Source of the DNA: an uncultured Verrucomicrobiae bacterium
Lineage (GTDB): Bacteria; Verrucomicrobiota; Verrucomicrobiia; Chthoniobacterales; Terrimicrobiaceae
Assembly (NCBI GenBank): GCA_963706955.1
Contig: CAVPOC010000008.1
Location: forward strand, 576,001 to 640,000
Direction of reading: 5' to 3'
Length of the DNA stretch: 64,000 nucleotides
Below the pieces are notes generated by a model, which saw only the letters and a list, made by a program, of their open reading frames with translations, ran no database searches and was not told the DNA's origin. A program made the position numbers and the translations under genes. Shown piece by piece: positions 15,953 through 28,377 of this stretch (position 1 is the first letter of the stretch; each line of letters begins with the position of its first letter).

Positions 15953-16975
15953 TCACGGAAGCGTCCAGGGTTTGAAGTAGTCGAGAAGAATGAGCGACGA
16001 GCCACCAGAGGAGCGTCGAGACGACTCAAGGACGGCGGGAAAGTCTGTCATTGGTCCAAAGACAAACCCGCGCGAGAGAGGACGAAAGAAATCGTCCTGA
16101 TGACTGGGAAGAACATATCGAGGTCGCAACTGTTCCAAAATTTCGGCAAATCGCTTTCGGGAGTCTGGGAGCGCCACTCCGAGGATCGCCAGATCGATTC
16201 GCCCGAGCGATGGCGGTAAGGCGCCGTTGGGTCTGCCGCCGGCTGCGATGTAGATTCGCCGCCCACCGATCTCGATTAAGAAAGCGAGCGGCTCTCCGCA
16301 GACCCAATCTCCGGCTGCCCGCGGCGGCAGACGGCGAGGTGGTCCATCGAAGGGAACACGGCCAAAAAGGCGGTCATGCTTTGCTGGGAGGACGCTTACG
16401 GTGGCTCCACGGAGAGAGACCTTCTCTCCAGCAGTAACGACCATGCACTTTTCCGATGGAACGCCCGCCGACCGCGCCAGTTGAATGCTGGTGGAAGAAG
16501 CGATCAGCCTCGCACCTGTGAGAGCGACGACCTCAGGGACATCGAGCAGATGATCGAAATGGCCGTGGGTCACCATGACGGCGTCGATTCTGCGCACCGG
16601 CAAGTATCGCTCGATTAGCTGGCGACTCGAGGAGACCGGAAGATTCATCGCGGCGCGAAAAAGCCTAATGCGCGAAAAGTAGGGGTCGATCAGCAGCGCC
16701 GCGTCGCGCGATTGTAGCAGATAAGCATTGGTTCCCAAATAGGCGATGCGCACTCCTGTTTTCGGTGGCGCAAACGACACATCTTGATCCGCGACGATCA
16801 AGTCGCGATAGCGCTGCAAGCCGGCGTGAAGCTCCTCCCTTGTCATCCAGAGGCCTAGAACGACCAGAATCCCGATCAGCCTCACAGATCGGCGAATTGC
16901 CGATTTCGCTGCTCTGACAACACATTCGAGACTGGCGCCGTCCCTTCTCTCTAGCTGGTTCTTCGATTTGCTCAT
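15953..16975 (-). CDS. Metallo-beta-lactamase-fold hydrolase (UlaG-like)
   Basis: LLIDPYFSR, THGHFDHLLD, H in PAKHD, PSHQDDFF. Start overlaps the upstream stop (ATGA). Confidence 0.85.
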   Translation of the reverse strand: MSKSKNQLERRDGASLECVVRAAKSAIRRSVRLIGILVVLGLWMTREELHAGLQRYRDLIVADQDVSFAPPKTGVRIAYLGTNAYLLQSRDAALLIDPYFSRIRLFRAAMNLPVSSSRQLIERYLPVRRIDAVMVTHGHFDHLLDVPEVVALTGARLIASSTSIQLARSAGVPSEKCMVVTAGEKVSLRGATVSVLPAKHDRLFGRVPFDGPPRRLPPRAAGDWVCGEPLAFLIEIGGRRIYIAAGGRPNGALPPSLGRIDLAILGVALPDSRKRFAEILEQLRPRYVLPSHQDDFFRPLSRGFVFGPMTDFPAVLESSRRSSGGSSLILLDYFKPWTLP

Positions 16976-17700
16976 ACAAGCGCGCGAAAAGCTCCGTAGA
17001 AGCGGAAAGGGTCGGTGTAAAGATGTTCCAAGCTTCGGAAGCCCCCTTCGAAAGCTATCCGTTCGAAGGTCCTTAGATTCTCGGGAAAGTCATACTGTGA
17101 AACATGCTCCCAAATGATTTTCCTTTCCTCGGAAGTGAACGCTTGCCAGTCGTGTTCAAGGGAAGCCTTCCAGCGATCAAGAAATTCTTCGCGCGTCTCC
17201 TGGCCATCGAGCATCGGTTCGAAGAAAATCCATTCGCCGCCTGCGCTAAGTGCGCGGCAAATTTGCGGTGCGAAGGCAACTTTGGCTTTGCTATCCAAGT
17301 GATGAAACGAGAAGCCAACAAAAATGATGTCCCACCGGCGGGAGGCTGCGTTAACATACTCCTGAAAGTCCTGGTGTATTACCTGCGTCGCGCACCCGAG
17401 TGAATGAGCGTTATCGAAAGCGACGGAGAGGGCGGGCTCCGAGAGGTCGACCGCGATGTATTCGCTGACGTTCGTTCCACGAAGAGCGGCAACGGAACAA
17501 CCCGCGTCCCCACAGGCGAGATCGAGCAACGAAAACGGCGCGCTTCGCGCCTTGAGCAGGTCGTGTAAAATTCCAAAGAGCGCGCGATGCGACATATAGT
17601 CCGCCTCAACGACGCGGCGATACATCGCCTGCTGCGCCACAAAAATCGCGAGTCCGCCATCGCTTCGAGATTCGGGGGTCAGACCCATCCCGACAGTCAA
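16972..17700 (-). CDS. Class I SAM-dependent methyltransferase
   Basis: LLDLACGDA motif I, AVDLS, FSFHHL, ALSAGG. Confidence 0.88.
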   Translation of the reverse strand: MTVGMGLTPESRSDGGLAIFVAQQAMYRRVVEADYMSHRALFGILHDLLKARSAPFSLLDLACGDAGCSVAALRGTNVSEYIAVDLSEPALSVAFDNAHSLGCATQVIHQDFQEYVNAASRRWDIIFVGFSFHHLDSKAKVAFAPQICRALSAGGEWIFFEPMLDGQETREEFLDRWKASLEHDWQAFTSEERKIIWEHVSQYDFPENLRTFERIAFEGGFRSLEHLYTDPFRFYGAFRALV

Positions 17701-17780: not shown

Positions 17781-17862
17781 TGCCCGGAGAGGGACTCGAA
17801 CCCACAAGGATTGCTCCACCAGATCCTAAGTCTGGCGCGTCTGCCAATTCCGCCACCCGGGC
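17781..17862 (-). tRNA. tRNA-Leu(TAG)
   Basis: GCCCGGGTGGCGGAATTGGCAGACGCG, CCAGA-CTTAGGA-TCTGG anticodon arm, long variable arm, GGTTCGAGTCCC. Confidence 0.97.
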
Positions 17863-17993: not shown

Positions 17994-18365
17994 CTATAAA
18001 ACGGCAGAATGCTTTAACGGGCGCTTCCTGTGGTATTTCCGACGCAGGTTGACTTCACAGATGATGAGCGGCTTTCGGTTTTTTTCGAGAATGTCCTGAA
18101 TGCCTTCTACGCAAGCCTCTACCACTTGCGACTGGCTGCGGTTCAGCTCGTCGGCCAACTCAGTCACCTTCTGCTTGCACTGCGACGTTACATTGACGAT
18201 GTGCGAACCGTTGCCTTCGTGCTCTGCAGGCGCGATAAACTCGCTGATCGCGTGACGAACGATATCCGACAGTCTCTCGCCCTTGCCGCGAGCAACCGCG
18301 ATCTCAAGCAATCGCTCGCGCTGCCCATCTTCTAGACGAACACGTAGCTGGTTGCTCTTAGGCAT
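17994..18365 (-). CDS. Ribbon-helix-helix (CopG/Arc-like) DNA-binding protein, apparently two tandem RHH units
   Basis: QLRVRLEDGQRERLLEIA...LSDIVRHAISEFI, then HIVNVTSQCKQKVTELADELNRSQSQVVEACVE. Confidence 0.65.
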   Translation of the reverse strand: MPKSNQLRVRLEDGQRERLLEIAVARGKGERLSDIVRHAISEFIAPAEHEGNGSHIVNVTSQCKQKVTELADELNRSQSQVVEACVEGIQDILEKNRKPLIICEVNLRRKYHRKRPLKHSAVL

Positions 18366-18422
18366 CTAAGTGTGATAAGGTAAAACTAAACAATTGCAAC
18401 ATTTTGTAAGCATCACCTCGGT

Positions 18423-19946
18423 TTAGGCAGCTGCTAAGGAAAAGCGAACCGCATGGTTGATGTCGTCGGTGAATTCAGCACTGCCCTCGTTGACATCCGG
18501 TTCGTAGAAGAGAACCGCATTCTCCGCGGTTCGTCCCTTCCCCAGGCGTAACCTTAGCGCTTTGACGTTCTTCGCCTGGGCTTGAACCGCACAGTCTCTA
18601 ATGGCCTGACCATCTGCATCGGAGATCTGAACACGAGGTAACGCAGCGGTTCCGGGGGAGATTTCGTTATCGACGAGAACCGGCACTGGCAGCGAGTCGA
18701 GAACTGCCTTCAGGTCCAAAGTACTCGGGGCGCCTTGACTTTCCTCATGCTTAGATCCGCGAGGCCCCCAGAAGACCGCGATTTTGCCATCGGCAAGCTT
18801 GGTCGCGAGGCAGGAAATCGTCGCCTGCGACTCGAAATCGATCCATGATTTCTCGACAAAGCTTCCTTTCAAAGCAAAGGCGATGACCTCCCGCGCGTAG
18901 CTATTGTGAATCGCCCTGAAATAATCTCCGTCTCGGGGTTCACTGCCTAAGAGCGCAGTCGCACCCGCTACGCTCAGAATTCGACCCTCTTGACTTATCG
19001 TGAGAATGCCGAATTTCAGCGCAGCAAAGGCTTCAAATAGATTCTTGGTTTGATGGTTTTGAGAGTCCCGTTCGAAGGCTGCCGCCACGTTTGTCGTCAG
19101 CAAATATCCGGCAACCTGGAGATCATCGAGCAGATCATCGGTGCAACGAGCGGCGTCGACTCCGAACGCCAGCCATCCGAGCAGCCGCGCCTCCTTCACC
19201 ATGGGGAGCAGCAGATTGCAATTGCGGTTGGCCAGATAGTTGAAAAGCGGAAGGGAGGCTCGATTTTCAAGTTCCTCCGTGGTGAGCGGATGGGCGCGCT
19301 TCTTGATCAAGCGGATAACCTCCTGAGAAGGTGCGCATTCTCGCCCACGAGATTTTCGCTCGGCGTAGGTTTCCGGCTCGACGTAGATGCGCCGGAAGGC
19401 ATTCTTCTCGACGTTCCGCAAAAATACTTCCACTCGGTCGGCCCGCAAGTCCCAACACAACTGCCGTGCCGCAGCGATGAGGACGGCCTGCGGCGTCTGG
19501 ACGTCGCCGGCCGCACGCGCGAGGGTGTGATCAAGAGGACTCGATATTCTGCGGGTTTGACGCCTCGGCTCGTGCCTTCGTGAAGGTGGAAAATTGTCTG
19601 TTGGGTGCGAGACGAGGTGCTGGCGGACGGCGTTGAGGACTTGATCCGGGGAGGAGGAAAGCCGGCCGGCATAACCGTTCAACTCGATCTTCGATTCTCC
19701 TAAGCCATCGACGACAAAGGTGGGAACGTCTTCGAGACGGACCTGAACTTGGTGCGCCTTCTCGAGCGTTTCATCGTCGATGACAACGCAAAGGGCTACG
19801 TCCGGCTGACGGAAGAGGGGGGCCCGCAATTCGTCGTATGAGCGAAGTTGGACCTCTGCAATTGATTCCAGGGCTTCTGCCACGTTAAGGGCGGAGCGGA
19901 GGCCATTGTGATCGTAAGCAACTATAATGGAGTGAGCGTGATTCAT
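18423..19946 (-). CDS. Hypothetical multi-domain sensor-like protein (receiver-like N-terminus, GAF-like, PAS-like; no kinase domain visible)
   Basis: 507 aa, ATGA-coupled to the KS gene. GAF-like LLLPMVKEARLLGWLAFG; PAS-like FGILTISQEGRILSV and LDSLPVPVLV. No H-box or HATPase motifs. Confidence 0.55.
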   Translation of the reverse strand: MNHAHSIIVAYDHNGLRSALNVAEALESIAEVQLRSYDELRAPLFRQPDVALCVVIDDETLEKAHQVQVRLEDVPTFVVDGLGESKIELNGYAGRLSSSPDQVLNAVRQHLVSHPTDNFPPSRRHEPRRQTRRISSPLDHTLARAAGDVQTPQAVLIAAARQLCWDLRADRVEVFLRNVEKNAFRRIYVEPETYAERKSRGRECAPSQEVIRLIKKRAHPLTTEELENRASLPLFNYLANRNCNLLLPMVKEARLLGWLAFGVDAARCTDDLLDDLQVAGYLLTTNVAAAFERDSQNHQTKNLFEAFAALKFGILTISQEGRILSVAGATALLGSEPRDGDYFRAIHNSYAREVIAFALKGSFVEKSWIDFESQATISCLATKLADGKIAVFWGPRGSKHEESQGAPSTLDLKAVLDSLPVPVLVDNEISPGTAALPRVQISDADGQAIRDCAVQAQAKNVKALRLRLGKGRTAENAVLFYEPDVNEGSAEFTDDINHAVRFSLAAA

Positions 19947-21247
19947 ACTAAGACATTACTGAGGTTGGGATTGTATATCATTAACTTGAAGTTCCGGTTA
20001 TCCTTAGGGAAAGTCGCCAGCTTTGCCTGTGGCGCTCTCAAGAGCAAAGTGACATTGGCCCCCCCGATACCATGCGCATTCAGCAAAGCTGTTTCGGGAA
20101 ATGAATACCTGGCAGTTTCGCGAACGAAGTCGAGGGCTTCGGGGATGGGCACATCCAGATTAGCGGTGGGCGGCACAACTCCATCGCGAAAGGAAAAGAT
20201 CGCCGCAGCAACCTGCAATGGTCCGGCCGCAGCCAAAGGATTTCCAATGGCTCCTTTGATCGAATAAACGGGAACGTGGGCCGCCTGGCGACCGAGCGTT
20301 TCCACAAGGATTTGCGCCTCGATGCGGTCAATGACCGGATGCCCCGGACCCCACGCCGAGATCGAATCGATCGTGGCTGGGCTCCATCCAGCATTGTCTA
20401 AAGCTTTCTGGATTGAAGTGGACCATCCACTCCCGGGCACGTCCTTCTCCGTATCGAGGTGGGAACCATACCCGGCGATCTCCGCGAGAATGGAAGCCCC
20501 CCTCCTCAGGGCGGACTGCTTCTCCTCGATCAGGAAGAGACCGGCGCCTTCGGCGCATACCCCGCTGTCGGCAAAAACGTCGAATGGCCGACTGGCCTTC
20601 TCAGGGCAGGAATTCCGGATCGATGAGAATCCGCTTCTGACGAATTCGGCGAGTGGGGTCAAACCGATAGCGCAATCAGCTCCCCCGGCGATCGCCTGAT
20701 CGGTTGCACCTGTGGCGATATCGCGAGCAGCTAGCCCAATGGCTTCCAAACCGGCGGCGCAGGCCGTGGAAACGGTTAATACATCGCCCGAACTTTCCAG
20801 GTATCGCGCGATTGCCCCCGCAGCGGCATGAGGTGGACTTTGCGAAGCCGCGTACGGAGAGGCCGCCGATCCCCCTTTCTGGCTGCGTGCAATGCCTGAT
20901 TCGCTAATCATTGAGGTGCAACTCGTCGCCACCCCGAGTCTAATCGAAGGCCGCTGCCCCAACTGTTTAACCTCATCTTTGATCTGGCGCGCTGCCCACA
21001 GTAAGAGTTGTGTGTGCCGCGCGACACGCTTGGGCCTAAGTTCTGCCGGAAACAGAGAAAGGTCGAAGGGTGGCACCTCCCCCCCAAAGGAGCATCCCGA
21101 TTCCGAGGTATCCAGGCGTCTGATTTTGCCGATTACCGTCCGCCCTGTCCTAATGATCTCCCAAAACGATTCTGGCTCAAGGGCGCCTGGCGCTGCCAAT
21201 CCCATGGCGGTGATGACGGCAACACGTGGGCGAGTTATGCCATGCAT
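19943..21247 (-). CDS. FabF-like beta-ketoacyl synthase with atypical active site
   Basis: VSTACAAG catalytic Cys, SRPFD, EGAG, AEIAGYG, PPTANL, HGIGGAN. The His positions read SAWGPG and GNPLAAAG. Confidence 0.88.
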   Translation of the reverse strand: MHGITRPRVAVITAMGLAAPGALEPESFWEIIRTGRTVIGKIRRLDTSESGCSFGGEVPPFDLSLFPAELRPKRVARHTQLLLWAARQIKDEVKQLGQRPSIRLGVATSCTSMISESGIARSQKGGSAASPYAASQSPPHAAAGAIARYLESSGDVLTVSTACAAGLEAIGLAARDIATGATDQAIAGGADCAIGLTPLAEFVRSGFSSIRNSCPEKASRPFDVFADSGVCAEGAGLFLIEEKQSALRRGASILAEIAGYGSHLDTEKDVPGSGWSTSIQKALDNAGWSPATIDSISAWGPGHPVIDRIEAQILVETLGRQAAHVPVYSIKGAIGNPLAAAGPLQVAAAIFSFRDGVVPPTANLDVPIPEALDFVRETARYSFPETALLNAHGIGGANVTLLLRAPQAKLATFPKDNRNFKLMIYNPNLSNVLV

Positions 21248-22752
21248 AGTTCTGTCTCCAACAGTTTCTCCGTGCCGAGTCTCGGCTCGTTTTGCCAGAG
21301 CGGTTCATAGCGGGAAGGCGCCATGCACTCGCTCGGATCGAAGGTCCGCTGTATTCCAGAAAGAATCCGCGGCCACGGCCGCTCCATTCGCGGAATCTGA
21401 TCGCCCTGGGCCAGGCCAAGACGATACGGGATCAATCCACTCCGCAGGTAAGTCTCGAGCAAGTCGTCAGCCGCTTGCCGAGCGATCCTAGTTGCTCGGG
21501 CGCAACGACGGTCAAACCCGAGCGAGACGATGAAGGCAGCCTGGCGCGCAGTTACCGCGTTGATGGAAAGCGGAATTGTCTCATAGCCATATCGCCGGAG
21601 CGTTGTCATCGTTTGCCTTTCGATAGCGCTGACCATCTCCCCACAAAGCGGTAACATCGGCGTAACGTGGATGAGACCGGCGCCACTCGCCTCCAAAGAC
21701 ACCCCCGTCGGAGCGGCGCGTCCAAAGACACTGAAAGATACGCTCGCCAGCGTCAGATCTGAAGGGTGACCAAACACCAAATTACTTAGCTTCACCCTTT
21801 CTTGATTGCTTAGAACCTCGACCGACCCCAGCGACGCCAAAGAAGAGGTTAGGTATTCCGCCGAAGCGGCAAACACCGCTGTCGATCCACGTATCGGAAT
21901 AAGCGCCGTCCACGGCGCGGCGCTCGAGCGAAGCTCAGCTGCTTGAGTATCCGTCAGGTGCGGGCACAGCGTCGTAACAATCCGCTCTCGATTGAAAATA
22001 TGAGGCACGCCAGAACAGGCTCCCTCCGCCATCAAATCGGAAATGGTTGAAATTAGATCGGCGAGTTGATCGCCGCTGCTCAGCCGGCAGAGCACTCCTC
22101 CCATCATTGTCGGACGTCGGTGAAGCGCGATGGTCGCCGCAGTGACCACGCCGAAGTTGCTTTGACAGAAGAGCGCCGTCGGGTCCGGACCCAATCCACT
22201 AAGACCCGCTCTGGTGCGCGACAACATCCCGAATCGGGACGTGTGGGCGAGCTCGCCAGTCGGCAAGACAACCTCCAAGTCCAACAAATCAAGGTGGCGC
22301 TGGCCGGAGTAGCCAATCCCCCGCTCTAAGGCGTTACCCAGAACACTCGCCCCAAGCCCGGCCCCTGTGACATTGAAATAGTGACTGCCCCCTTCGTGCT
22401 CGAGGGCATCGTCTAGCTGGCCCTGTGTAACGCCGGGTTCAATCTCCGCACAATGCATCTTCAAATTGAAAGCCCGGATCCTTCGAAGCGCCGACAAGTT
22501 CAAAGTGTAGACATCGTCTGTCGTCGCGAGATCGGAACCGAAGCCCCAATTTCGACCGCATGAAAGTGGTTGCAATTTGACGGCGCCTCTGGCCCGTGAG
22601 GCCGCTGCGACAATACGCTGCACATCGGCCACACACTGCGGAGTCAGCACGCCGGCACTATGGCGGCGATGTCCACATAAAGACTCCGCCATCGCCCCCG
22701 GAGCTAACCAGCGACTCACTTCATCTGCAAAAACCTTCTTCGAACTACGCAT
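21235..22752 (-). CDS. FAD-binding oxidoreductase, VAO/PCMH (p-cresol methylhydroxylase flavoprotein-like) family
   Basis: PLSCGRNWGFGS, IEPGVTQGQL, SVLGNALERGIGY, LEVVLPTGE, GPDPTALFCQSNFGVVT, PYRLG...FDP...APSRY. Confidence 0.88.
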   Translation of the reverse strand: MRSSKKVFADEVSRWLAPGAMAESLCGHRRHSAGVLTPQCVADVQRIVAAASRARGAVKLQPLSCGRNWGFGSDLATTDDVYTLNLSALRRIRAFNLKMHCAEIEPGVTQGQLDDALEHEGGSHYFNVTGAGLGASVLGNALERGIGYSGQRHLDLLDLEVVLPTGELAHTSRFGMLSRTRAGLSGLGPDPTALFCQSNFGVVTAATIALHRRPTMMGGVLCRLSSGDQLADLISTISDLMAEGACSGVPHIFNRERIVTTLCPHLTDTQAAELRSSAAPWTALIPIRGSTAVFAASAEYLTSSLASLGSVEVLSNQERVKLSNLVFGHPSDLTLASVSFSVFGRAAPTGVSLEASGAGLIHVTPMLPLCGEMVSAIERQTMTTLRRYGYETIPLSINAVTARQAAFIVSLGFDRRCARATRIARQAADDLLETYLRSGLIPYRLGLAQGDQIPRMERPWPRILSGIQRTFDPSECMAPSRYEPLWQNEPRLGTEKLLETELCMA

Positions 22753-23006
22753 ATCTCTTTAGGTAATCTCTTCACTCGTTTTCGCCCGCGTCGGGAAGGC
22801 AGCCTTCGACAGTTGCGAATCACACCGACAAGACCGTTCACCGCGGGGGGCTAAGACGAGTCAATCTGATTAGAATTTCGCCCTTCTAAGGCTCAGTTTG
22901 CAGGTGCGTCACCGCTAATTTTCTGTAGCGTGCCTTGTCGTTTTGTTTCCTTTGATGCACAAATAGGGCACATTTGTATCACAAACATGTTATCTGCAAT
23001 ACACCT

Positions 23007-23627
23007 ATGACAAGTGAGTTACACGGAGAGAGTCTCGGACGCTGGGCTCGGCGTTGTGGAATTACATATCGGACCGCGTGGCGTTGGTTTCGCGACGACA
23101 AATTGCCGGAAGACGTGATTGCCGAGCGGATGCCCACCGGAACGATCCTGATCCGTGACGGCCGAACTCTAAGGAGTGTGGAGCAAGATAAGACCGCGGT
23201 AATTTATGCACGGATTAATGCTCGCCAGGAACCCTCGGTGTTGGCGGAGCAGATCGCTATGTGTCAGGACTTCTGTGTGGCGCGAGGATGGACGATCACC
23301 CGGGTGATTCGGGAGATTGCCCCCGGAGTTGGACTTCAACGAACAAAGTTGACGCGGCTCATTGAGCAGCGGGCGCCAAGAGTCGTCGTGGCGAAACCAA
23401 GTGTCTTGAGCCGCTTTGACTATCGGCTCTGTGAGGCTCTCTGGCAGAACCTTGCCTCAGAGCTTGTGATTGTGAACCAAGCCGAGGAGATCGGTGGGGA
23501 GGGTGGCGCGCTCGAAGATTTGACCGACGCAATAAACATTATTTGTCATCGTCACTATGGACCGAAACGCGGCGGCGCGCTGGTCGAGCTGCTCAGCCGA
23601 GTCATTCACGGAACGCTCTCTGTTTAA
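23007..23627 (+). CDS. IS607 TnpA-like serine recombinase homolog, predicted catalytically inactive, no tnpB
   Basis: N-terminal MerR-like HTH (WARRCGITYRTAWRWF...PTGTILI) and resolvase-like domain, but YARINA replaces YARVSS and SVLSRF replaces DRLxRF. C-terminal ICHRHYG matches FxARLYG. Confidence 0.8.
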   Translation: MTSELHGESLGRWARRCGITYRTAWRWFRDDKLPEDVIAERMPTGTILIRDGRTLRSVEQDKTAVIYARINARQEPSVLAEQIAMCQDFCVARGWTITRVIREIAPGVGLQRTKLTRLIEQRAPRVVVAKPSVLSRFDYRLCEALWQNLASELVIVNQAEEIGGEGGALEDLTDAINIICHRHYGPKRGGALVELLSRVIHGTLSV

Positions 23628-23644
23628 TTCTTGCGTCGGCGGTC

Positions 23645-24808
23645 TCAAACAAGCCGCGCAAAAGCAGCAATCAACTCGTGGCGGGTCTTAAATCCCAACT
23701 TCTTATAAATGGAACTCAATTGGTTCCGCACGGTGATTTCGCTTTTCCCCAGTCTCTGGGCAATATCCCGATTGTGCAGACCTTGGGCGGCAAGCAGCGC
23801 GCAATCCCGTTCGCGTCGGGTCAACTGATTGAGCTTATCGGCAAGATTTGTCTCTTTCTTGGAAAGACGTTCTTCGTTGAGCGTCAGCAAAAAAGTTCCC
23901 TTCGATAACGATAGCGATCGTGAGGGCAAGAACTCGATGGAAGCGCTCAAGGCGGCATTCGTAGGATGTCGATAGCGAAACTGTATAGATCTGCGGCCGC
24001 CGGGAGTATGGCTCCATTTTTGCCGCATGATGTTCGGGCGCATTCGTTCGAGTTCGGCTAAGATGTCGCCGGGGACTTGAAGTCTTCGAGGAGCTTTGAA
24101 GATCGACGGGCTGCTCCCGTTCTTCCATTGAAAGCAAAGTTGGCTGGCAATGGCGTTGTTGTGCAAGACCTTTAGATTCCAATCGAGGATGATTGTCGCG
24201 GAAGGAAGCGAAGAGACAAAGTAGCGCAGAGACGATTGAAAGAGGCGGCTCTCTTGATGCCCGGCCATTCTGCGAATCACGCAAGCAAAGTGAGGCTGGA
24301 GGGCCTGCAGTTCCTGCATTTGCTCGTCCGTAAAGTTTCCCTGTTCTTTACTGCGCATCACTGTAAGTGTCGCCAGCCAAGTGGTGTCGCGCCAGGCGAC
24401 CACCGAAGCGCCAAACTCGCATTCACTCGGCAGGAGGAGCTTCTTATAGAAGATCGACCGGTGGAGCATGTTTTGCGGCGTGAAATCGGAGTGTCGCACC
24501 ACGGTGACTTGGGGGTTTACTGGACTTCGCCGCAACCAAATATCGTGCTTGTGGGTTTCGGCCATGTACTCGTCCACGAGCGGCTTCCACTTCAAAGGAA
24601 AAAAACGACACGGGAGTTCAAACTCCAACGGACGAAACAGCAAGATCAAAAAACGGTTAGGAATGCAGACGTCGACAAGCTCGAACGTTGCTTTGGCAAG
24701 CTTCGCACCATCATCGACTTCGTGGAGTCGAACTAAAAGCTCCTCCGCCGCACGATTGGTATGAAACGGAAGAAACGACACCTTTTGGTTCGTTTGCACC
24801 ATAGCCAT
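23645..24808 (-). CDS. Solo LuxR-family transcriptional regulator with N-terminal GAF-like ligand-binding region
   Basis: C-terminal LTRRERDCALLAAQGLHNRDIAQRLGKSEITVRNQLSSIYKKLG HTH; no receiver domain. Confidence 0.88.
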   Translation of the reverse strand: MAMVQTNQKVSFLPFHTNRAAEELLVRLHEVDDGAKLAKATFELVDVCIPNRFLILLFRPLEFELPCRFFPLKWKPLVDEYMAETHKHDIWLRRSPVNPQVTVVRHSDFTPQNMLHRSIFYKKLLLPSECEFGASVVAWRDTTWLATLTVMRSKEQGNFTDEQMQELQALQPHFACVIRRMAGHQESRLFQSSLRYFVSSLPSATIILDWNLKVLHNNAIASQLCFQWKNGSSPSIFKAPRRLQVPGDILAELERMRPNIMRQKWSHTPGGRRSIQFRYRHPTNAALSASIEFLPSRSLSLSKGTFLLTLNEERLSKKETNLADKLNQLTRRERDCALLAAQGLHNRDIAQRLGKSEITVRNQLSSIYKKLGFKTRHELIAAFARLV

Positions 24809-25129
24809 CGTTCAATCTTCCTTTAGCATTCAACCTTAGCAGCGACAAGTGTTACATCTTGAGCCATGAGGGTGGCACCGAAGTGCCGGCGCCGCCAAGG
24901 GGTTGGCTTGCCGCCTTGCCAGCTGGAGAATTCGACGCCGCTCGACTAAGAGGAAAGCTCGAACCGGGGGAGACTCGGGCAAAGGAAGTGTGCAGCATTT
25001 GGTTCAAATGCACTATAGTCGGTGTCGCGGCGGTTGTTCTACTGTCATCGAAAAGGAACTCAACGATCGAATCGTGCCGCCTCGGAGACAAGAAAGATGT
25101 GGAAGCTTTTGGTTCATTTGCACCATAGC
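24782..25129. repeat. Three copies of a 24-bp motif with a pseudo-palindromic core (putative operator boxes) at 24782-24805, 24996-25019 and 25106-25129
   Basis: CTTTTGGTTCGTTTGCACCATAGC / CATTTGGTTCAAATGCACTATAGT / CTTTTGGTTCATTTGCACCATAGC. Confidence 0.8.
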
Positions 25130-25290
25130 AGAATCGCCAGACTTCTCCATACTGGGACTTGAAATTCTTCTCGTCGTAGCCCGCGAAAGACCAGGAAGAG
25201 CGGGTGGAGAATTTAAGTAGCCCGATCGGAGTAGAGGCCGATGCGGATAGCGTTTCGGGATTGGGACCCAACAAGAAAGGACACGCCCCC

Positions 25291-25602
25291 ATGTGGAAAG
25301 TCGTAGTAACAGAGATTCAGGACGCAAGCGCCCTGGAGCCCTTCGATGTGCCGGCTGGGGCTTTTTTTGTCAGCAAGGAACGACTTGCGCGGACCGTGGA
25401 GAATCTCGATCTGCCGGGGTTGATCGACGCCCTCGAGGCCATGCAATACGCGAGGGAAGCCCGGCCCGTTTCGAGCGAAGGAACTCCGCCGAGACGGAAT
25501 TCGTTGCGGGCGAACGCGGGCTCTGAAATCCACCGCGTGAACCGACTGCGGTCGCAACCGATAGCAGTGGCAACTCAATTTGTTTCGAAAAACGGTCCAT
25601 GA
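25291..25602 (+). CDS. Small hypothetical protein (103 aa)
   Basis: AGAAAGGA RBS before ATG 25291; stop overlaps the LytTR start (ATGA). Confidence 0.5.
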   Translation: MWKVVVTEIQDASALEPFDVPAGAFFVSKERLARTVENLDLPGLIDALEAMQYAREARPVSSEGTPPRRNSLRANAGSEIHRVNRLRSQPIAVATQFVSKNGP

Positions 25603-26093
25603 TATTCAACCATCTCCAGAAGCGGCTTCCCGGGCCGCCATCTACCATTCACCTCCAAGGGCTTACCAACGGCACCCATCGTCAACCTTCCTCGGCTTCG
25701 GATGACGAGCTGCAAAGCCTCGAGGGCGAAGAGATTGCTCAGCGCAACGGTGGGATCTTTCAAGATAACGACTTCGTTTTCGTCAGTGACAACGTGAACT
25801 GCTGGGTGGTGCGGGCTGCGGATATCTCGGTGCTCGAAGCGTGCGGAAACTACACGCGCGTCTACTTCAACGACTCCTCGGCCTTGATTCGCCGTCCCCT
25901 CCGGGAGTGTGAGTGTCGGTTGGATCCCTCCACGTTTTTTCGGACCCGGCGCGATTGTGTGGTCAATCTCAGCCGCGTGAAGCAAATGCGGATGCTCGAC
26001 GCCAAGCGCTTCCTTTTTGTTCTGCTGGACGGCAAGGAGGTGCCAATGTCGCGAAAGCAGAGCCTCATTTTCCGAAAGACAAAGGCCCTCTAA
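25599..26093 (+). CDS. Stand-alone LytTR DNA-binding domain protein
   Basis: DISVLEACGNYTRVY, LRECECRLDPSTFFRTRRDCVVNL, VPMSRKQS; no receiver domain. Confidence 0.88.
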   Translation: MIFNHLQKRLPGPPSTIHLQGLTNGTHRQPSSASDDELQSLEGEEIAQRNGGIFQDNDFVFVSDNVNCWVVRAADISVLEACGNYTRVYFNDSSALIRRPLRECECRLDPSTFFRTRRDCVVNLSRVKQMRMLDAKRFLFVLLDGKEVPMSRKQSLIFRKTKAL

Positions 26094-26816: not shown

Positions 26817-26899
26817 CTTCCCTCTGTTGCGCTGGAAATGAGTCGCCGGCAAGAAATTGATTTCGCTTGGCCCGCATTGCTTCCAAAGTAGGCTTGAAC

Positions 26900-27439
26900 A
26901 TGGATCGGCTCTTCAAACGCGCACGACAACTGGCAAGACCGATGTTGGCGTGGTTGCGGGCTTGGCCTTGGTTCGTGGCCAGCATCGTTCTTGGATTTTG
27001 GATCGAGGAGAACTTTCCATTTTCGCATTGGCCGATGTATTCAAATTTCTCGAGAGAGTCGGGTTACGTGTATGTGATCAATGCCGCCGGGGAACCGATC
27101 GCCGCGGCGACACTGTTGGAAACTGCGCCGAGGCTCCGACGCCAGTTTGAGCGAGAGCGGCGGACGGAGCTCAATCGTGTGAAAACTGGCCAGGCGGTCA
27201 AAACGCCCGCCGAGATCGAGCGCGATGCCGCAATGCATCTCTTGAAACGGCTCGCACAGCGATTGTCTCCCGATGAGCGAAAGTCCGCAAACGGGCTGGG
27301 ACTGGTCAGCGCACGGCTGAGAATGGACGACAATCGCAAGATCACCGTAACGGAGCAGACCGTGGCGACAATTGAGTTTGAAGGCATACCTTACACCCCG
27401 ACCTCCGCCGGCGACGACCTCCTCAAGGAAGCCCTCTAA
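26900..27439 (+). CDS. Hypothetical membrane-anchored protein
   Basis: N-terminal hydrophobic segment followed by ENFPFSHWPMYS; 11 bp upstream of the HTTM-like gene. Confidence 0.6.
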   Translation: MDRLFKRARQLARPMLAWLRAWPWFVASIVLGFWIEENFPFSHWPMYSNFSRESGYVYVINAAGEPIAAATLLETAPRLRRQFERERRTELNRVKTGQAVKTPAEIERDAAMHLLKRLAQRLSPDERKSANGLGLVSARLRMDDNRKITVTEQTVATIEFEGIPYTPTSAGDDLLKEAL

Positions 27440-27450
27440 CCAAGCAGGCT

Positions 27451-28377
27451 ATGGACAAACGTGCTCTCACCGACATCGTTCCTCGGATAGATTTCGCCTG
27501 GTGGGAAACGGCCATCATGCGGGCAGGATTTGCCATCCTCCTCCTGACTCGCTTTCCCTCTCTTGGTTCTCTTCCGGCCCCCGGGGCCGAGCTTCGTTTT
27601 CCAAACGGCTTGGCCAAGTGGATCGATTTGACCTGGGCTCTCGACCCCGGGCCATACTCGTTCATTGTGATCCTTCTGAATGCTGCCGCAGCCCTCTACA
27701 TCACCGGTCTCGCCTTTCCGCTCTCCTCCACGGTGTTGTTCCTCTGCTACTTGGTGACGGGAACATTGCAGAACTCGCTGGGCTCCATCAGCCACTACTA
27801 TCAAGTAATGACACTGATGCTGCTCGGACAGGCGATCGCCGCCTGGCTGTGGGCCGCGCTGGGGCCAGACCGGCTCGAGGCTTGGACACGTTCCCCGGCC
27901 TCCTTGCACTCTTTCACGACCCGGGTGACTCTCCAGGTTCTCGCAGGTAATTACGTTCTCTGCGCTCTTACCAAGCTCATCCAGAGCGACGGCGCCTGGA
28001 TTTGGAATAGCCAGTATATGCCCGTGCAATATGCGAAGATTCAGGCCCAGCACTACTATACGACCTTACAGAATCGAGACCTCGGGTTGGGAGGGACGCT
28101 CAATGACCTCTGCACCCAACATGCCTGGCTGTGCATGCTCGTTTACGCGCCCGGATTGATCGGGGAACTGCTCACCTTTCTGATGCTTTTCGGCCGAGTC
28201 TGGCTGCTGCTCGTCGGCCTTGCGGTCATTGCGATGCACGCACTCGTCGAAATCACCATGAACCTCGCTTTTCCTCAGCACCAGTGGATCTTCCTTATCT
28301 ACGCCGTCAATCTTCCGTTCTGGATCGTCAGAGGAATGCAGAGCCGTCCCGTCGGACTGCGCCGACATCCCGCCTAA
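27451..28377 (+). CDS. HTTM-like multi-pass membrane protein
   Basis: Several TM helices; SLGSISHYYQ, NYVLCALTKL...W, MHALVEITMNLAF resemble HTTM-domain motifs. Confidence 0.6.
   Translation: MDKRALTDIVPRIDFAWWETAIMRAGFAILLLTRFPSLGSLPAPGAELRFPNGLAKWIDLTWALDPGPYSFIVILLNAAAALYITGLAFPLSSTVLFLCYLVTGTLQNSLGSISHYYQVMTLMLLGQAIAAWLWAALGPDRLEAWTRSPASLHSFTTRVTLQVLAGNYVLCALTKLIQSDGAWIWNSQYMPVQYAKIQAQHYYTTLQNRDLGLGGTLNDLCTQHAWLCMLVYAPGLIGELLTFLMLFGRVWLLLVGLAVIAMHALVEITMNLAFPQHQWIFLIYAVNLPFWIVRGMQSRPVGLRRHPA

Follow-up and report, generated by a model that had tools for sequence, protein, structure and literature searches.

The window analysed here, a stretch of 64,000 nucleotides from an uncultured Verrucomicrobiae bacterium (contig CAVPOC010000008.1, positions 576,001 to 640,000), raises the question of what a ketosynthase, a flavoprotein oxidase and a sensor lacking a kinase domain are doing in one operon, surrounded by several classes of DNA-binding protein, at positions 17994 to 26093. 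An initial annotation, made from the sequence alone, proposed that the two enzymes make or modify an acylated metabolite that is sensed by a LuxR-type or GAF protein. By comparison with related genomes and metagenomes, we find that the block is a real, selected and previously undescribed signalling cassette. On balance, the sequence comparisons favour the reading that it is a kinase-free, rewired version of a lipid-signal module present across the phylum, which would make and perceive an acyl-derived signal. No description of the module was found in the literature searched, mostly open-access papers.

ORF calling in the window returned seven uninterrupted open reading frames (ORFs), arranged as first described. 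On the minus strand, the genes for a VAO/PCMH-fold flavoprotein oxidase (505 aa, 21235 to 22752), a remodelled FabF-fold ketosynthase that we call KS* (19943 to 21247) and the kinase-less sensor (507 aa, 18423 to 19946) form an overlapping operon, with overlaps of 13 bp between oxidase and KS* and 4 bp between KS* and sensor, and the gene for a tandem ribbon-helix-helix-like protein (RHH, 123 aa, 17994 to 18365, also minus strand) follows 57 bp after the sensor. Across a divergent intergenic region (22753 to 23006) lies the gene for a dead IS607-type TnpA (23007 to 23627, plus strand), then a one-component regulator with GAF/PAS and LuxR-type helix-turn-helix (HTH) parts (387 aa, 23645 to 24808, minus strand; a GTG at 24781 may be the true start) and a receiver-less LytTR protein (25599 to 26093, plus strand). 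The first feature list held these seven genes but missed a short conserved gene without a known family (103 aa, 25291 to 25602, plus strand; its first 55 aa are conserved and it overlaps the lytTR start), a tRNA-Leu(TAG) gene and the overlap of a repeated box with the start of luxR. It was right that no acyl carrier protein (ACP), chain-length factor (CLF), LuxI, integrase or tnpB is found among the window proteins, which we scanned with family profiles.

The gene order from RHH through sensor, KS*, oxidase, TnpA, LuxR, small gene and LytTR to a Ham1 gene, the right border of the block, is kept in 13 of the 17 loci of the genus; in the remaining four, contig ends truncate the block and what is left agrees, so that no locus contradicts the order. 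A KS* orthologue with 62-88% identity is found in 17 of 18 same-genus genomes, the lone miss being a genome that is 59% complete, and in none of 18 genomes of other genera in the family, while the LuxR-type gene is present in all 18 genus genomes and in none of 83 other genomes of the family. Median pairwise dN/dS values were calculated by the Nei-Gojobori method from 13-15 sequences per gene, after excluding two assemblies with frameshifts, rows that contained stops or had an odd length, and pairs whose dS fell outside 0.05-2. They were 0.10 for RHH, 0.18 for the sensor, 0.10 for KS*, 0.16 for the oxidase, 0.10 for TnpA, 0.11 for LuxR and 0.14 for LytTR, with 0.29 for the small gene and 0.17 for the flanking Ham1 gene. 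The genes thus co-occur in other genomes, and the seven initially listed have dN/dS values of 0.10-0.18, not near 1. Since flanking housekeeping genes are equally syntenic within the genus, synteny at this level is in itself no proof of coupling, and distant genomes provide the stronger test.

Such genomes exist. The genes for KS*, oxidase, dead TnpA and LuxR keep their order and orientation in 3 of 104 genomes from a second order (G868, G941 and G953; G, C and L numbers are our handles for genomes, contigs and loci), all in one family (3 of its 23 genomes), and the order recurs in the metagenome locus L164, with identities of 36-68% across these distant loci. Among the four distant kinase-free loci, RHH is present in three (as it is in L230), a fatty-acid desaturase gene stands first in the operon in two, and the sensor slot is filled in all four, with only the G953 protein matching the sensor profile. 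LytTR and the small gene occur in none of the four; LytTR is a genus-specific appendage and not part of the core. The oxidase homologues of this distant tier are labelled Methylacidiphilales. A quick KS tree of 32 rows, from which 13 intended rows are missing, recovered a window-type clade with support of 99-100; it is unrooted, names no donor and has FabF on a long branch. The patchy spread, together with integrase genes beside the cassette copy of G953, suggests that the cassette moved between orders as a unit.

The most unusual component is KS*. It matches the ketoacyl-synt family, its model has a FabF fold (pLDDT 74, TM ~0.8) and its TIGR03150 score is 245 bits versus a cut-off of 494. Relative to Synechocystis FabF, C163 and K331 are retained, HGTSTP reads WGPGHP with the first catalytic His replaced by W299, the second His is N336, and GFGG has become GIGG. 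Among the matches listed, C163, K331, N336 and a new His, H303, are present in 120 of 120 homologues, and position 299 is Trp in 62 and Tyr in 58 of them; it is His in 6 of 8 more distant sequences. The two-His set is used for malonyl decarboxylation, and with Trp or Tyr at 299 and Asn at 336 across the listed homologues it is broken in a fixed way. The invariance of C163, H303, K331 and N336 fits an active site that has been changed rather than one that has decayed. Two other full FabF paralogues in the genome have the canonical Cys-His-His set, and a scan of named genomes with the KS alignment returned mostly ordinary FabF/KS-alpha genes and one true orthologue. An adjacent CLF and ACP, as in a type II polyketide synthase, were not found in the ORFs scanned, each annotated locus has one KS, and no relative locus annotated contains an ACP/CLF cluster. 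One canonical-looking ACP is encoded elsewhere in the genome, on contig C1.

To which system does such an enzyme belong? The KS* motif pattern is found in at least 10 of 401 genomes of the phylum, the exact pattern giving a floor, and in 38 of 301 genomes of the order (a tally that includes the unpublished G591), among them 30 of 39 genomes of one family (f14), 6 of 6 of the window genus and 1 of 30 of family f6. The oxidase clade is found in 24 of the 401 phylum genomes. In G255, G205, G164 and G296, KS* heads an operon of a seven-transmembrane (7TM)-GAF-PAS kinase, a receiver-like-GAF-PAS kinase and a sigma54 activator, which faces FadL and a receiver-kinase followed by the oxidase (in G296 by acyltransferases instead). 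A methyltransferase is present in three of these four loci, and O-methyltransferases occur in G255, G205 and G085. The 20 further oxidase-anchored genome loci (of 23 outside the window) contain the receiver-kinase in 20 cases, FadL in 17 and KS* in 15; four of the five lacking KS* are truncated by a contig border, and G108 has KS* remnants only. In the metagenome set, 80 of the 120 KS* matches listed had flanks. A 7TM kinase gene follows KS* in 68 of these loci, a window-type sensor gene in 5 and a divergent ORF in 2; the other 5 are too short. As a rule, KS* in Verrucomicrobiota leads an operon with two sensor kinases, and many genomes add a sigma54 activator, FadL and the same oxidase. The neighbours of KS* relatives, namely sensor kinases, FadL and a methyltransferase or desaturase, fit a lipid-like signal.

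The position of the oxidase is variously occupied. A stand-alone lantibiotic-dehydratase-N-like gene (about 810 aa) lies after the receiver-kinase, where other lineages have the oxidase, in L026 (5495-7930), L126 and 21 of 26 metagenome loci, and this is the common soil form. In G296 (L124, 13509-15895), a methyltransferase, an OlsB-like N-acyltransferase and an OlsA-like O-acyltransferase replace the oxidase after the receiver-kinase.

Compared with this parent form, the window version has no kinase. The sensor gave no Pfam match above cut-off; its division into receiver-like, GAF and PAS parts, followed by about 110 aa of unknown fold, comes from the ESM Atlas and from profile homology to the receiver-like-GAF-PAS kinases. 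Residues 1-399 align to the second kinase of the parent operon (hhalign 98.4%, E 7e-15) and then diverge; no match to HisKA or HATPase domains was found, and the homology stops before HisKA. By these alignments, the window sensor is the second parent kinase cut down to its sensory part. A library-wide search with the sensor profile gave seven clusters of full-length proteins (about 500 aa) and some fragments, followed by proteins of 607-679 aa. The single-sequence fold of the sensor (pLDDT 33) was not used, and the complex prediction for the sensor with two RHH copies scored 0.00, which is no evidence either way. Intermediates are seen in L172 and L290, where the order is oxidase, KS*, 7TM kinase and second kinase, and where the second kinase retains its His box with the HATPase match absent. 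A streptomycin-adenylyltransferase-like nucleotidyltransferase gene follows the degenerate second kinase in both (L172, 5007-5906; L290, 15793-16680). RHH, whose RHH_1 match is weak (E 0.064), occupies the slot after the sensor that is held by the sigma54 activator in the parent form. From gene content, RHH, the dead TnpA and the GAF/PAS-LuxR regulator take the place of the phosphorelay in the window form.

TnpA is the least expected of these regulators. It matches the Resolvase and IS607 transposase families below cut-off (NF033518, 93 bits versus 110), and its best structures are the TnpA proteins of ISC1926 and IS1535, with YARIN where these have YARVS. The catalytic Ser is thus Asn, in agreement with the initial description of a divergent dead recombinase, and among the matches listed this position is Asn in 114 of 120 homologues, Pro in 1 and a gap in 5. 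This Ser is required for transposition (PMC6188088). The gene is single-copy in the genome, luxR follows where tnpB would be, and its position is fixed in all 15 genus loci that reach it and in the four distant loci; in 401 class genomes it was matched in three only, all cassette carriers. The simplest reading is that the dead TnpA has probably been exapted as a DNA-binding protein. About 100 bp just 5' of dead tnpA, within the divergent intergenic region, are conserved genus-wide in a 13-locus alignment and are a candidate TnpA target. The same literature search yielded no description of a domesticated IS607 TnpA; the reported domestication of TnpB proteins into transcription factors offers a conceptual parallel (bioRxiv 2023.11.30.569447).

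The LuxR-type protein was initially called a solo LuxR. Its LuxR/GerE HTH is confirmed, but no autoinducer-binding domain was matched: GerE is the only Pfam match, the N-terminal 310 aa resemble unnamed GAF/PAS regulators, and the profile matches RhlR and CviR only over positions 320-372. The repeated operator-like box is present as three copies of a conserved near-palindrome, TGGT(T/G/A)C-N4-G(T/C)ACCA. Copy 1 (repeat 24780-24804, palindrome 24786 to 24801), TGGTTC-N4-GCACCA, overlaps the luxR start; copy 2 (24994-25018, palindrome 25000 to 25015) is degenerate; and copy 3 (25104-25128, palindrome 25110 to 25125) lies 165 bp 5' of the small gene. Copy 1 is conserved in each of the 13 aligned genus loci, and extra copies, present in the window and in 6 of 15 genus loci, are local duplications in which the box is kept and the flanks have drifted. 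The exact palindromic pattern has three sites in the 4.16-Mb genome, two of them in the window and one elsewhere, and they lie at luxR and one small gene. The strict pattern occurs in 18 of 19 genus genomes and a reversed control pattern in none of the 19. A site outside the cassette is present in 12 genus genomes, of which 9 were read; in all nine it precedes a small ORF, seven of which are one family of 50-90-aa ORFs starting 100-150 bp downstream and two of which we take to be DUF2934-like. These ORFs sit in unrelated neighbourhoods, and as the box precedes them it marks a small regulon. In the window genome the outside box (contig C8, 185545-185560; L297, L321) is about 100 bp 5' of an unannotated 66-aa ORF, the family of which follows the box in 7 of the 9 loci read.

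Because L164 has a perfect palindrome 47 bp 5' of luxR and no LytTR, the position of the box points to the LuxR-type protein as its binder. Three LytTR paralogues elsewhere in the genome (a pair at contig C15, 73413-75159, and one at C2, 262084-262515) are all receiver-less, and no good box was found beside their genes; the C15 pair lies just 5' of a sugar-transferase/polysaccharide cluster. Two other identities for the box were rejected: a LexA/SOS box, as no site lies 5' of recA, and a sigma54 site, as the spacing is unlike the sigma54 consensus. In the distant loci L335 (10.7-13 kb), L336, L337 (13013-13270) and L164 (15490-15756), a different small helical ORF of about 70-90 aa, seemingly divergent from luxR, stands in the position of the window's small gene.

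The oxidase carries an FAD_binding_4 domain, and its closest solved structures are 4-phenol oxidases (9FGE/9FFK, 8S7x), eugenol oxidase and PCMH. Y443-R444 is invariant. In VAO numbering, Phe replaces the first Tyr in the phenolate-binding set, and neither the Asp nor the covalent His is present. A plasmid search with the oxidase found only PCMH-like catabolic genes of about 30% identity in the two regions read. In L024 (G006, contig C26), a frameshift at oxidase codons ~416-429 puts the N-terminal part of the oxidase in the KS* frame, giving an open frame of 936 aa that is either an assembly error or a real lesion.

From gene content, gene order, selection and residue changes, all of which are observed, we infer the chemical and binding steps of a working scheme. 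KS* would be active and load an acyl chain from primary fatty-acid synthesis onto C163, and would pass this chain on, with something other than malonyl-ACP as the acceptor. The oxidase, joined in some lineages by a desaturase or methyltransferase, would tailor the product. This hydrophobic product could then be read by the GAF/PAS domain of the LuxR-type protein or by the truncated sensor. The LuxR-type protein would bind the palindrome and regulate luxR itself, the pair of small gene and lytTR, and small genes outside the cassette, and RHH and dead TnpA would tune the operon promoters. The parent form would use kinases and FadL import for the tasks that fall, in the window form, to the LuxR-type protein, RHH and dead TnpA.

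Several observations weigh against this scheme, beginning with the equal synteny of the flanking housekeeping genes. Of the 26 KS*-anchored metagenome loci with 4 kb or more of upstream sequence, 21 have no oxidase, and G049 and G353 gave no oxidase match; KS* and oxidase are therefore not an obligate pair. In G108 (L285), KS* is reduced to remnants while the oxidase and kinases are retained. In the window genome, which is 92.5% complete, neither FadL nor the N-terminal part of either kinase found a match, so a signal from outside may no longer be imported or sensed at the membrane. G868, G941 and G953 showed no full box 5' of luxR, the last having half, and the box-binding protein is assigned from position only. 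Of the original proposal, co-occurrence and purifying selection are supported, and the neighbours fit a lipid-like signal; membership in two known signalling systems, considered below, is not supported.

The same observations can be read in other ways. KS* could be a sensor subunit, which binds or is acylated by acyl-ACP or acyl-CoA and signals the lipid state of its own cell by touching the co-translated GAF/PAS sensor or kinase, nothing being released. The sensor is the next gene in 73 of 75 loci with room, the two genes share a stop/start overlap, the oxidase is so often absent, and the W and Y subclades have lost both His residues that decarboxylative condensation needs; FadL in 17 of 20 oxidase-anchored loci, on the other hand, points to a hydrophobic molecule from outside, the new invariant His and Asn suggest chemistry, and KS* persists after loss of its usual neighbour, the 7TM kinase. 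We consider this account rather unlikely. It is more doubtful still that the two enzymes produce or alter a lipid with a structural or envelope role while the regulators respond to another cue and the product is not their ligand. The loci devote three kinases, an activator and a transporter to one or two enzymes, a proportion that speaks for signalling, and the sensors stay while tailoring genes vary. This proposal can draw on the desaturase in two loci, the OlsB-like and OlsA-like acyltransferase genes adjoining the G296 module, and the other box targets, which are small proteins and not the enzyme operon (an exact-pattern scan of the genome found no box 5' of the oxidase gene).

A role in breaking down an outside phenolic or acyl signal, by FadL uptake, PCMH-like oxidation and thiolytic cleavage by KS*, with the regulators as inducers, would suit the nearest solved relatives of the oxidase, and FadL does import hydrophobic compounds, but the annotated loci contain no downstream catabolic genes and the commonest soil form has no oxidase, which makes it very improbable. 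Finally, a decaying mosaic of unrelated remnants, suggested by the loss of the catalytic Ser, of His residues and of kinase and receiver domains, and by frameshifts in G010, G012 and G006 (oxidase) and G018 (RHH), is refuted by the dN/dS values, the gene order common to two bacterial orders and substitutions that are fixed, not random, and the G010 and G012 frameshifts look like assembly errors because LeuRS and Ham1 are frameshifted there too.

A recent island is ruled out by a GC content of 0.54-0.59 and a GC3 of 0.60-0.71, both as in the flanks, and a repeat search around the locus showed no att-like repeat. The tRNA-Leu(TAG) gene (17781 to 17862, minus strand) forms the left border outside the cassette and adjoins RHH in 12 of 17 genus loci; beyond it, at 15953-17700, lie methyltransferase and metallo-beta-lactamase-fold genes, which are present in only 4 of 17 genus loci and are outside the cassette. 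On the right, at 26867-28377, the genus has two conserved genes without a Pfam family (190 and 308 aa) between Ham1 and leuS, the 308-aa product being a membrane protein with a dN/dS of 0.11, whereas Ham1 directly adjoins leuS in five other genera. Named close relatives carry the labels Terrimicrobiaceae and Verrucomicrobiota. Four soil metatranscriptomes, a small share, gave short contigs over most genes, some spanning the RHH/sensor, sensor/KS* and KS*/oxidase borders; they possibly derive from DNA, are unable to rank the genes and are not used as evidence.

If the reading of the block as a rewired lipid-signal module is true, it would offer a testable signal synthase-receptor pair for a phylum common in soil; within it, one Chthoniobacterales family carries the KS* motif in 30 of 39 genomes, and the motif is core to the window genus. 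It would also add a new reaction to the FabF fold, provide a clear example of a serine transposase that lost catalysis and was retained to bind DNA, and show how a signal module passed from a three-kinase phosphorelay to one-component regulators, with the intermediates still visible. All parts are small soluble proteins, and the operator is a candidate. It is tempting to speculate, and we do so tentatively, that this is a new signalling class, in which a FabF-derived Cys/new His/Asn enzyme acts across Verrucomicrobiota as the source of a non-Claisen acyl product or as an acyl-sensing subunit, one lineage having exchanged its kinase cascade for one-component regulators that include a domesticated IS607 transposase, with the cassette moving between orders.

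How does the cassette compare with known systems? KS* shares with FabF/KAS II the elongating-type thiolase fold with a nucleophilic Cys, about 30-35% identity, Cys163 and Lys331, but it lacks the Cys-His-His triad (W299 and N336; W/Y and N in relatives). TnpA has the N-terminal HTH and serine-recombinase domain of IS607 TnpA, and differs from an insertion sequence in its Ser-to-Asn change, the missing tnpB, its single copy, its fixed locus and its purifying selection. The oxidase resembles the VAO/PCMH family in its FAD_binding_4 domain, a full-length match to 9FGE and PCMH and the retained C-terminal Tyr-Arg, although its identity to anything solved is about 30% or lower. FeeG, CndG and HyeB are also VAO/PCMH-family oxidases; FeeG and CndG decarboxylate N-acyl-tyrosine (PMC11959600, PMC8762209). 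The window has no FeeM-type acyltransferase. The 7TM-GAF kinase and sigma54 activator of the parent loci recall PrsK/PrsR of PEP-CTERM regulation, but the parent genes miss the TIGR02916 and TIGR02915 cut-offs (activators 330-379 versus 502.6), and kinase and activator genes of that kind are not in the window.

The closest functional analogy is with PpyS/PluR and DarABC/PauR of Photorhabdus, in which a ketosynthase drawing on fatty-acid intermediates yields a non-AHL signal for a LuxR-HTH regulator (PMC7154725); a stand-alone ketosynthase is likewise proposed here to make a non-AHL signal for such a regulator. According to the same source, PpyS is FabH-like, whereas KS* has a FabF fold, its best structures all being of FabF/KS-alpha type. 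PluR and PauR have a LuxR signal-binding domain with TYDQCS/TYDQYI motifs (PMC4414361), while the window protein, without such a domain, resembles AHL-type LuxR proteins in the HTH only. There is also no DarA or DarC, and the parent form of the window module signals via histidine kinases. Membership in either system is thus not upheld, and by analogy the window module, though not a member, may work like PpyS/PluR or Dar/PauR.

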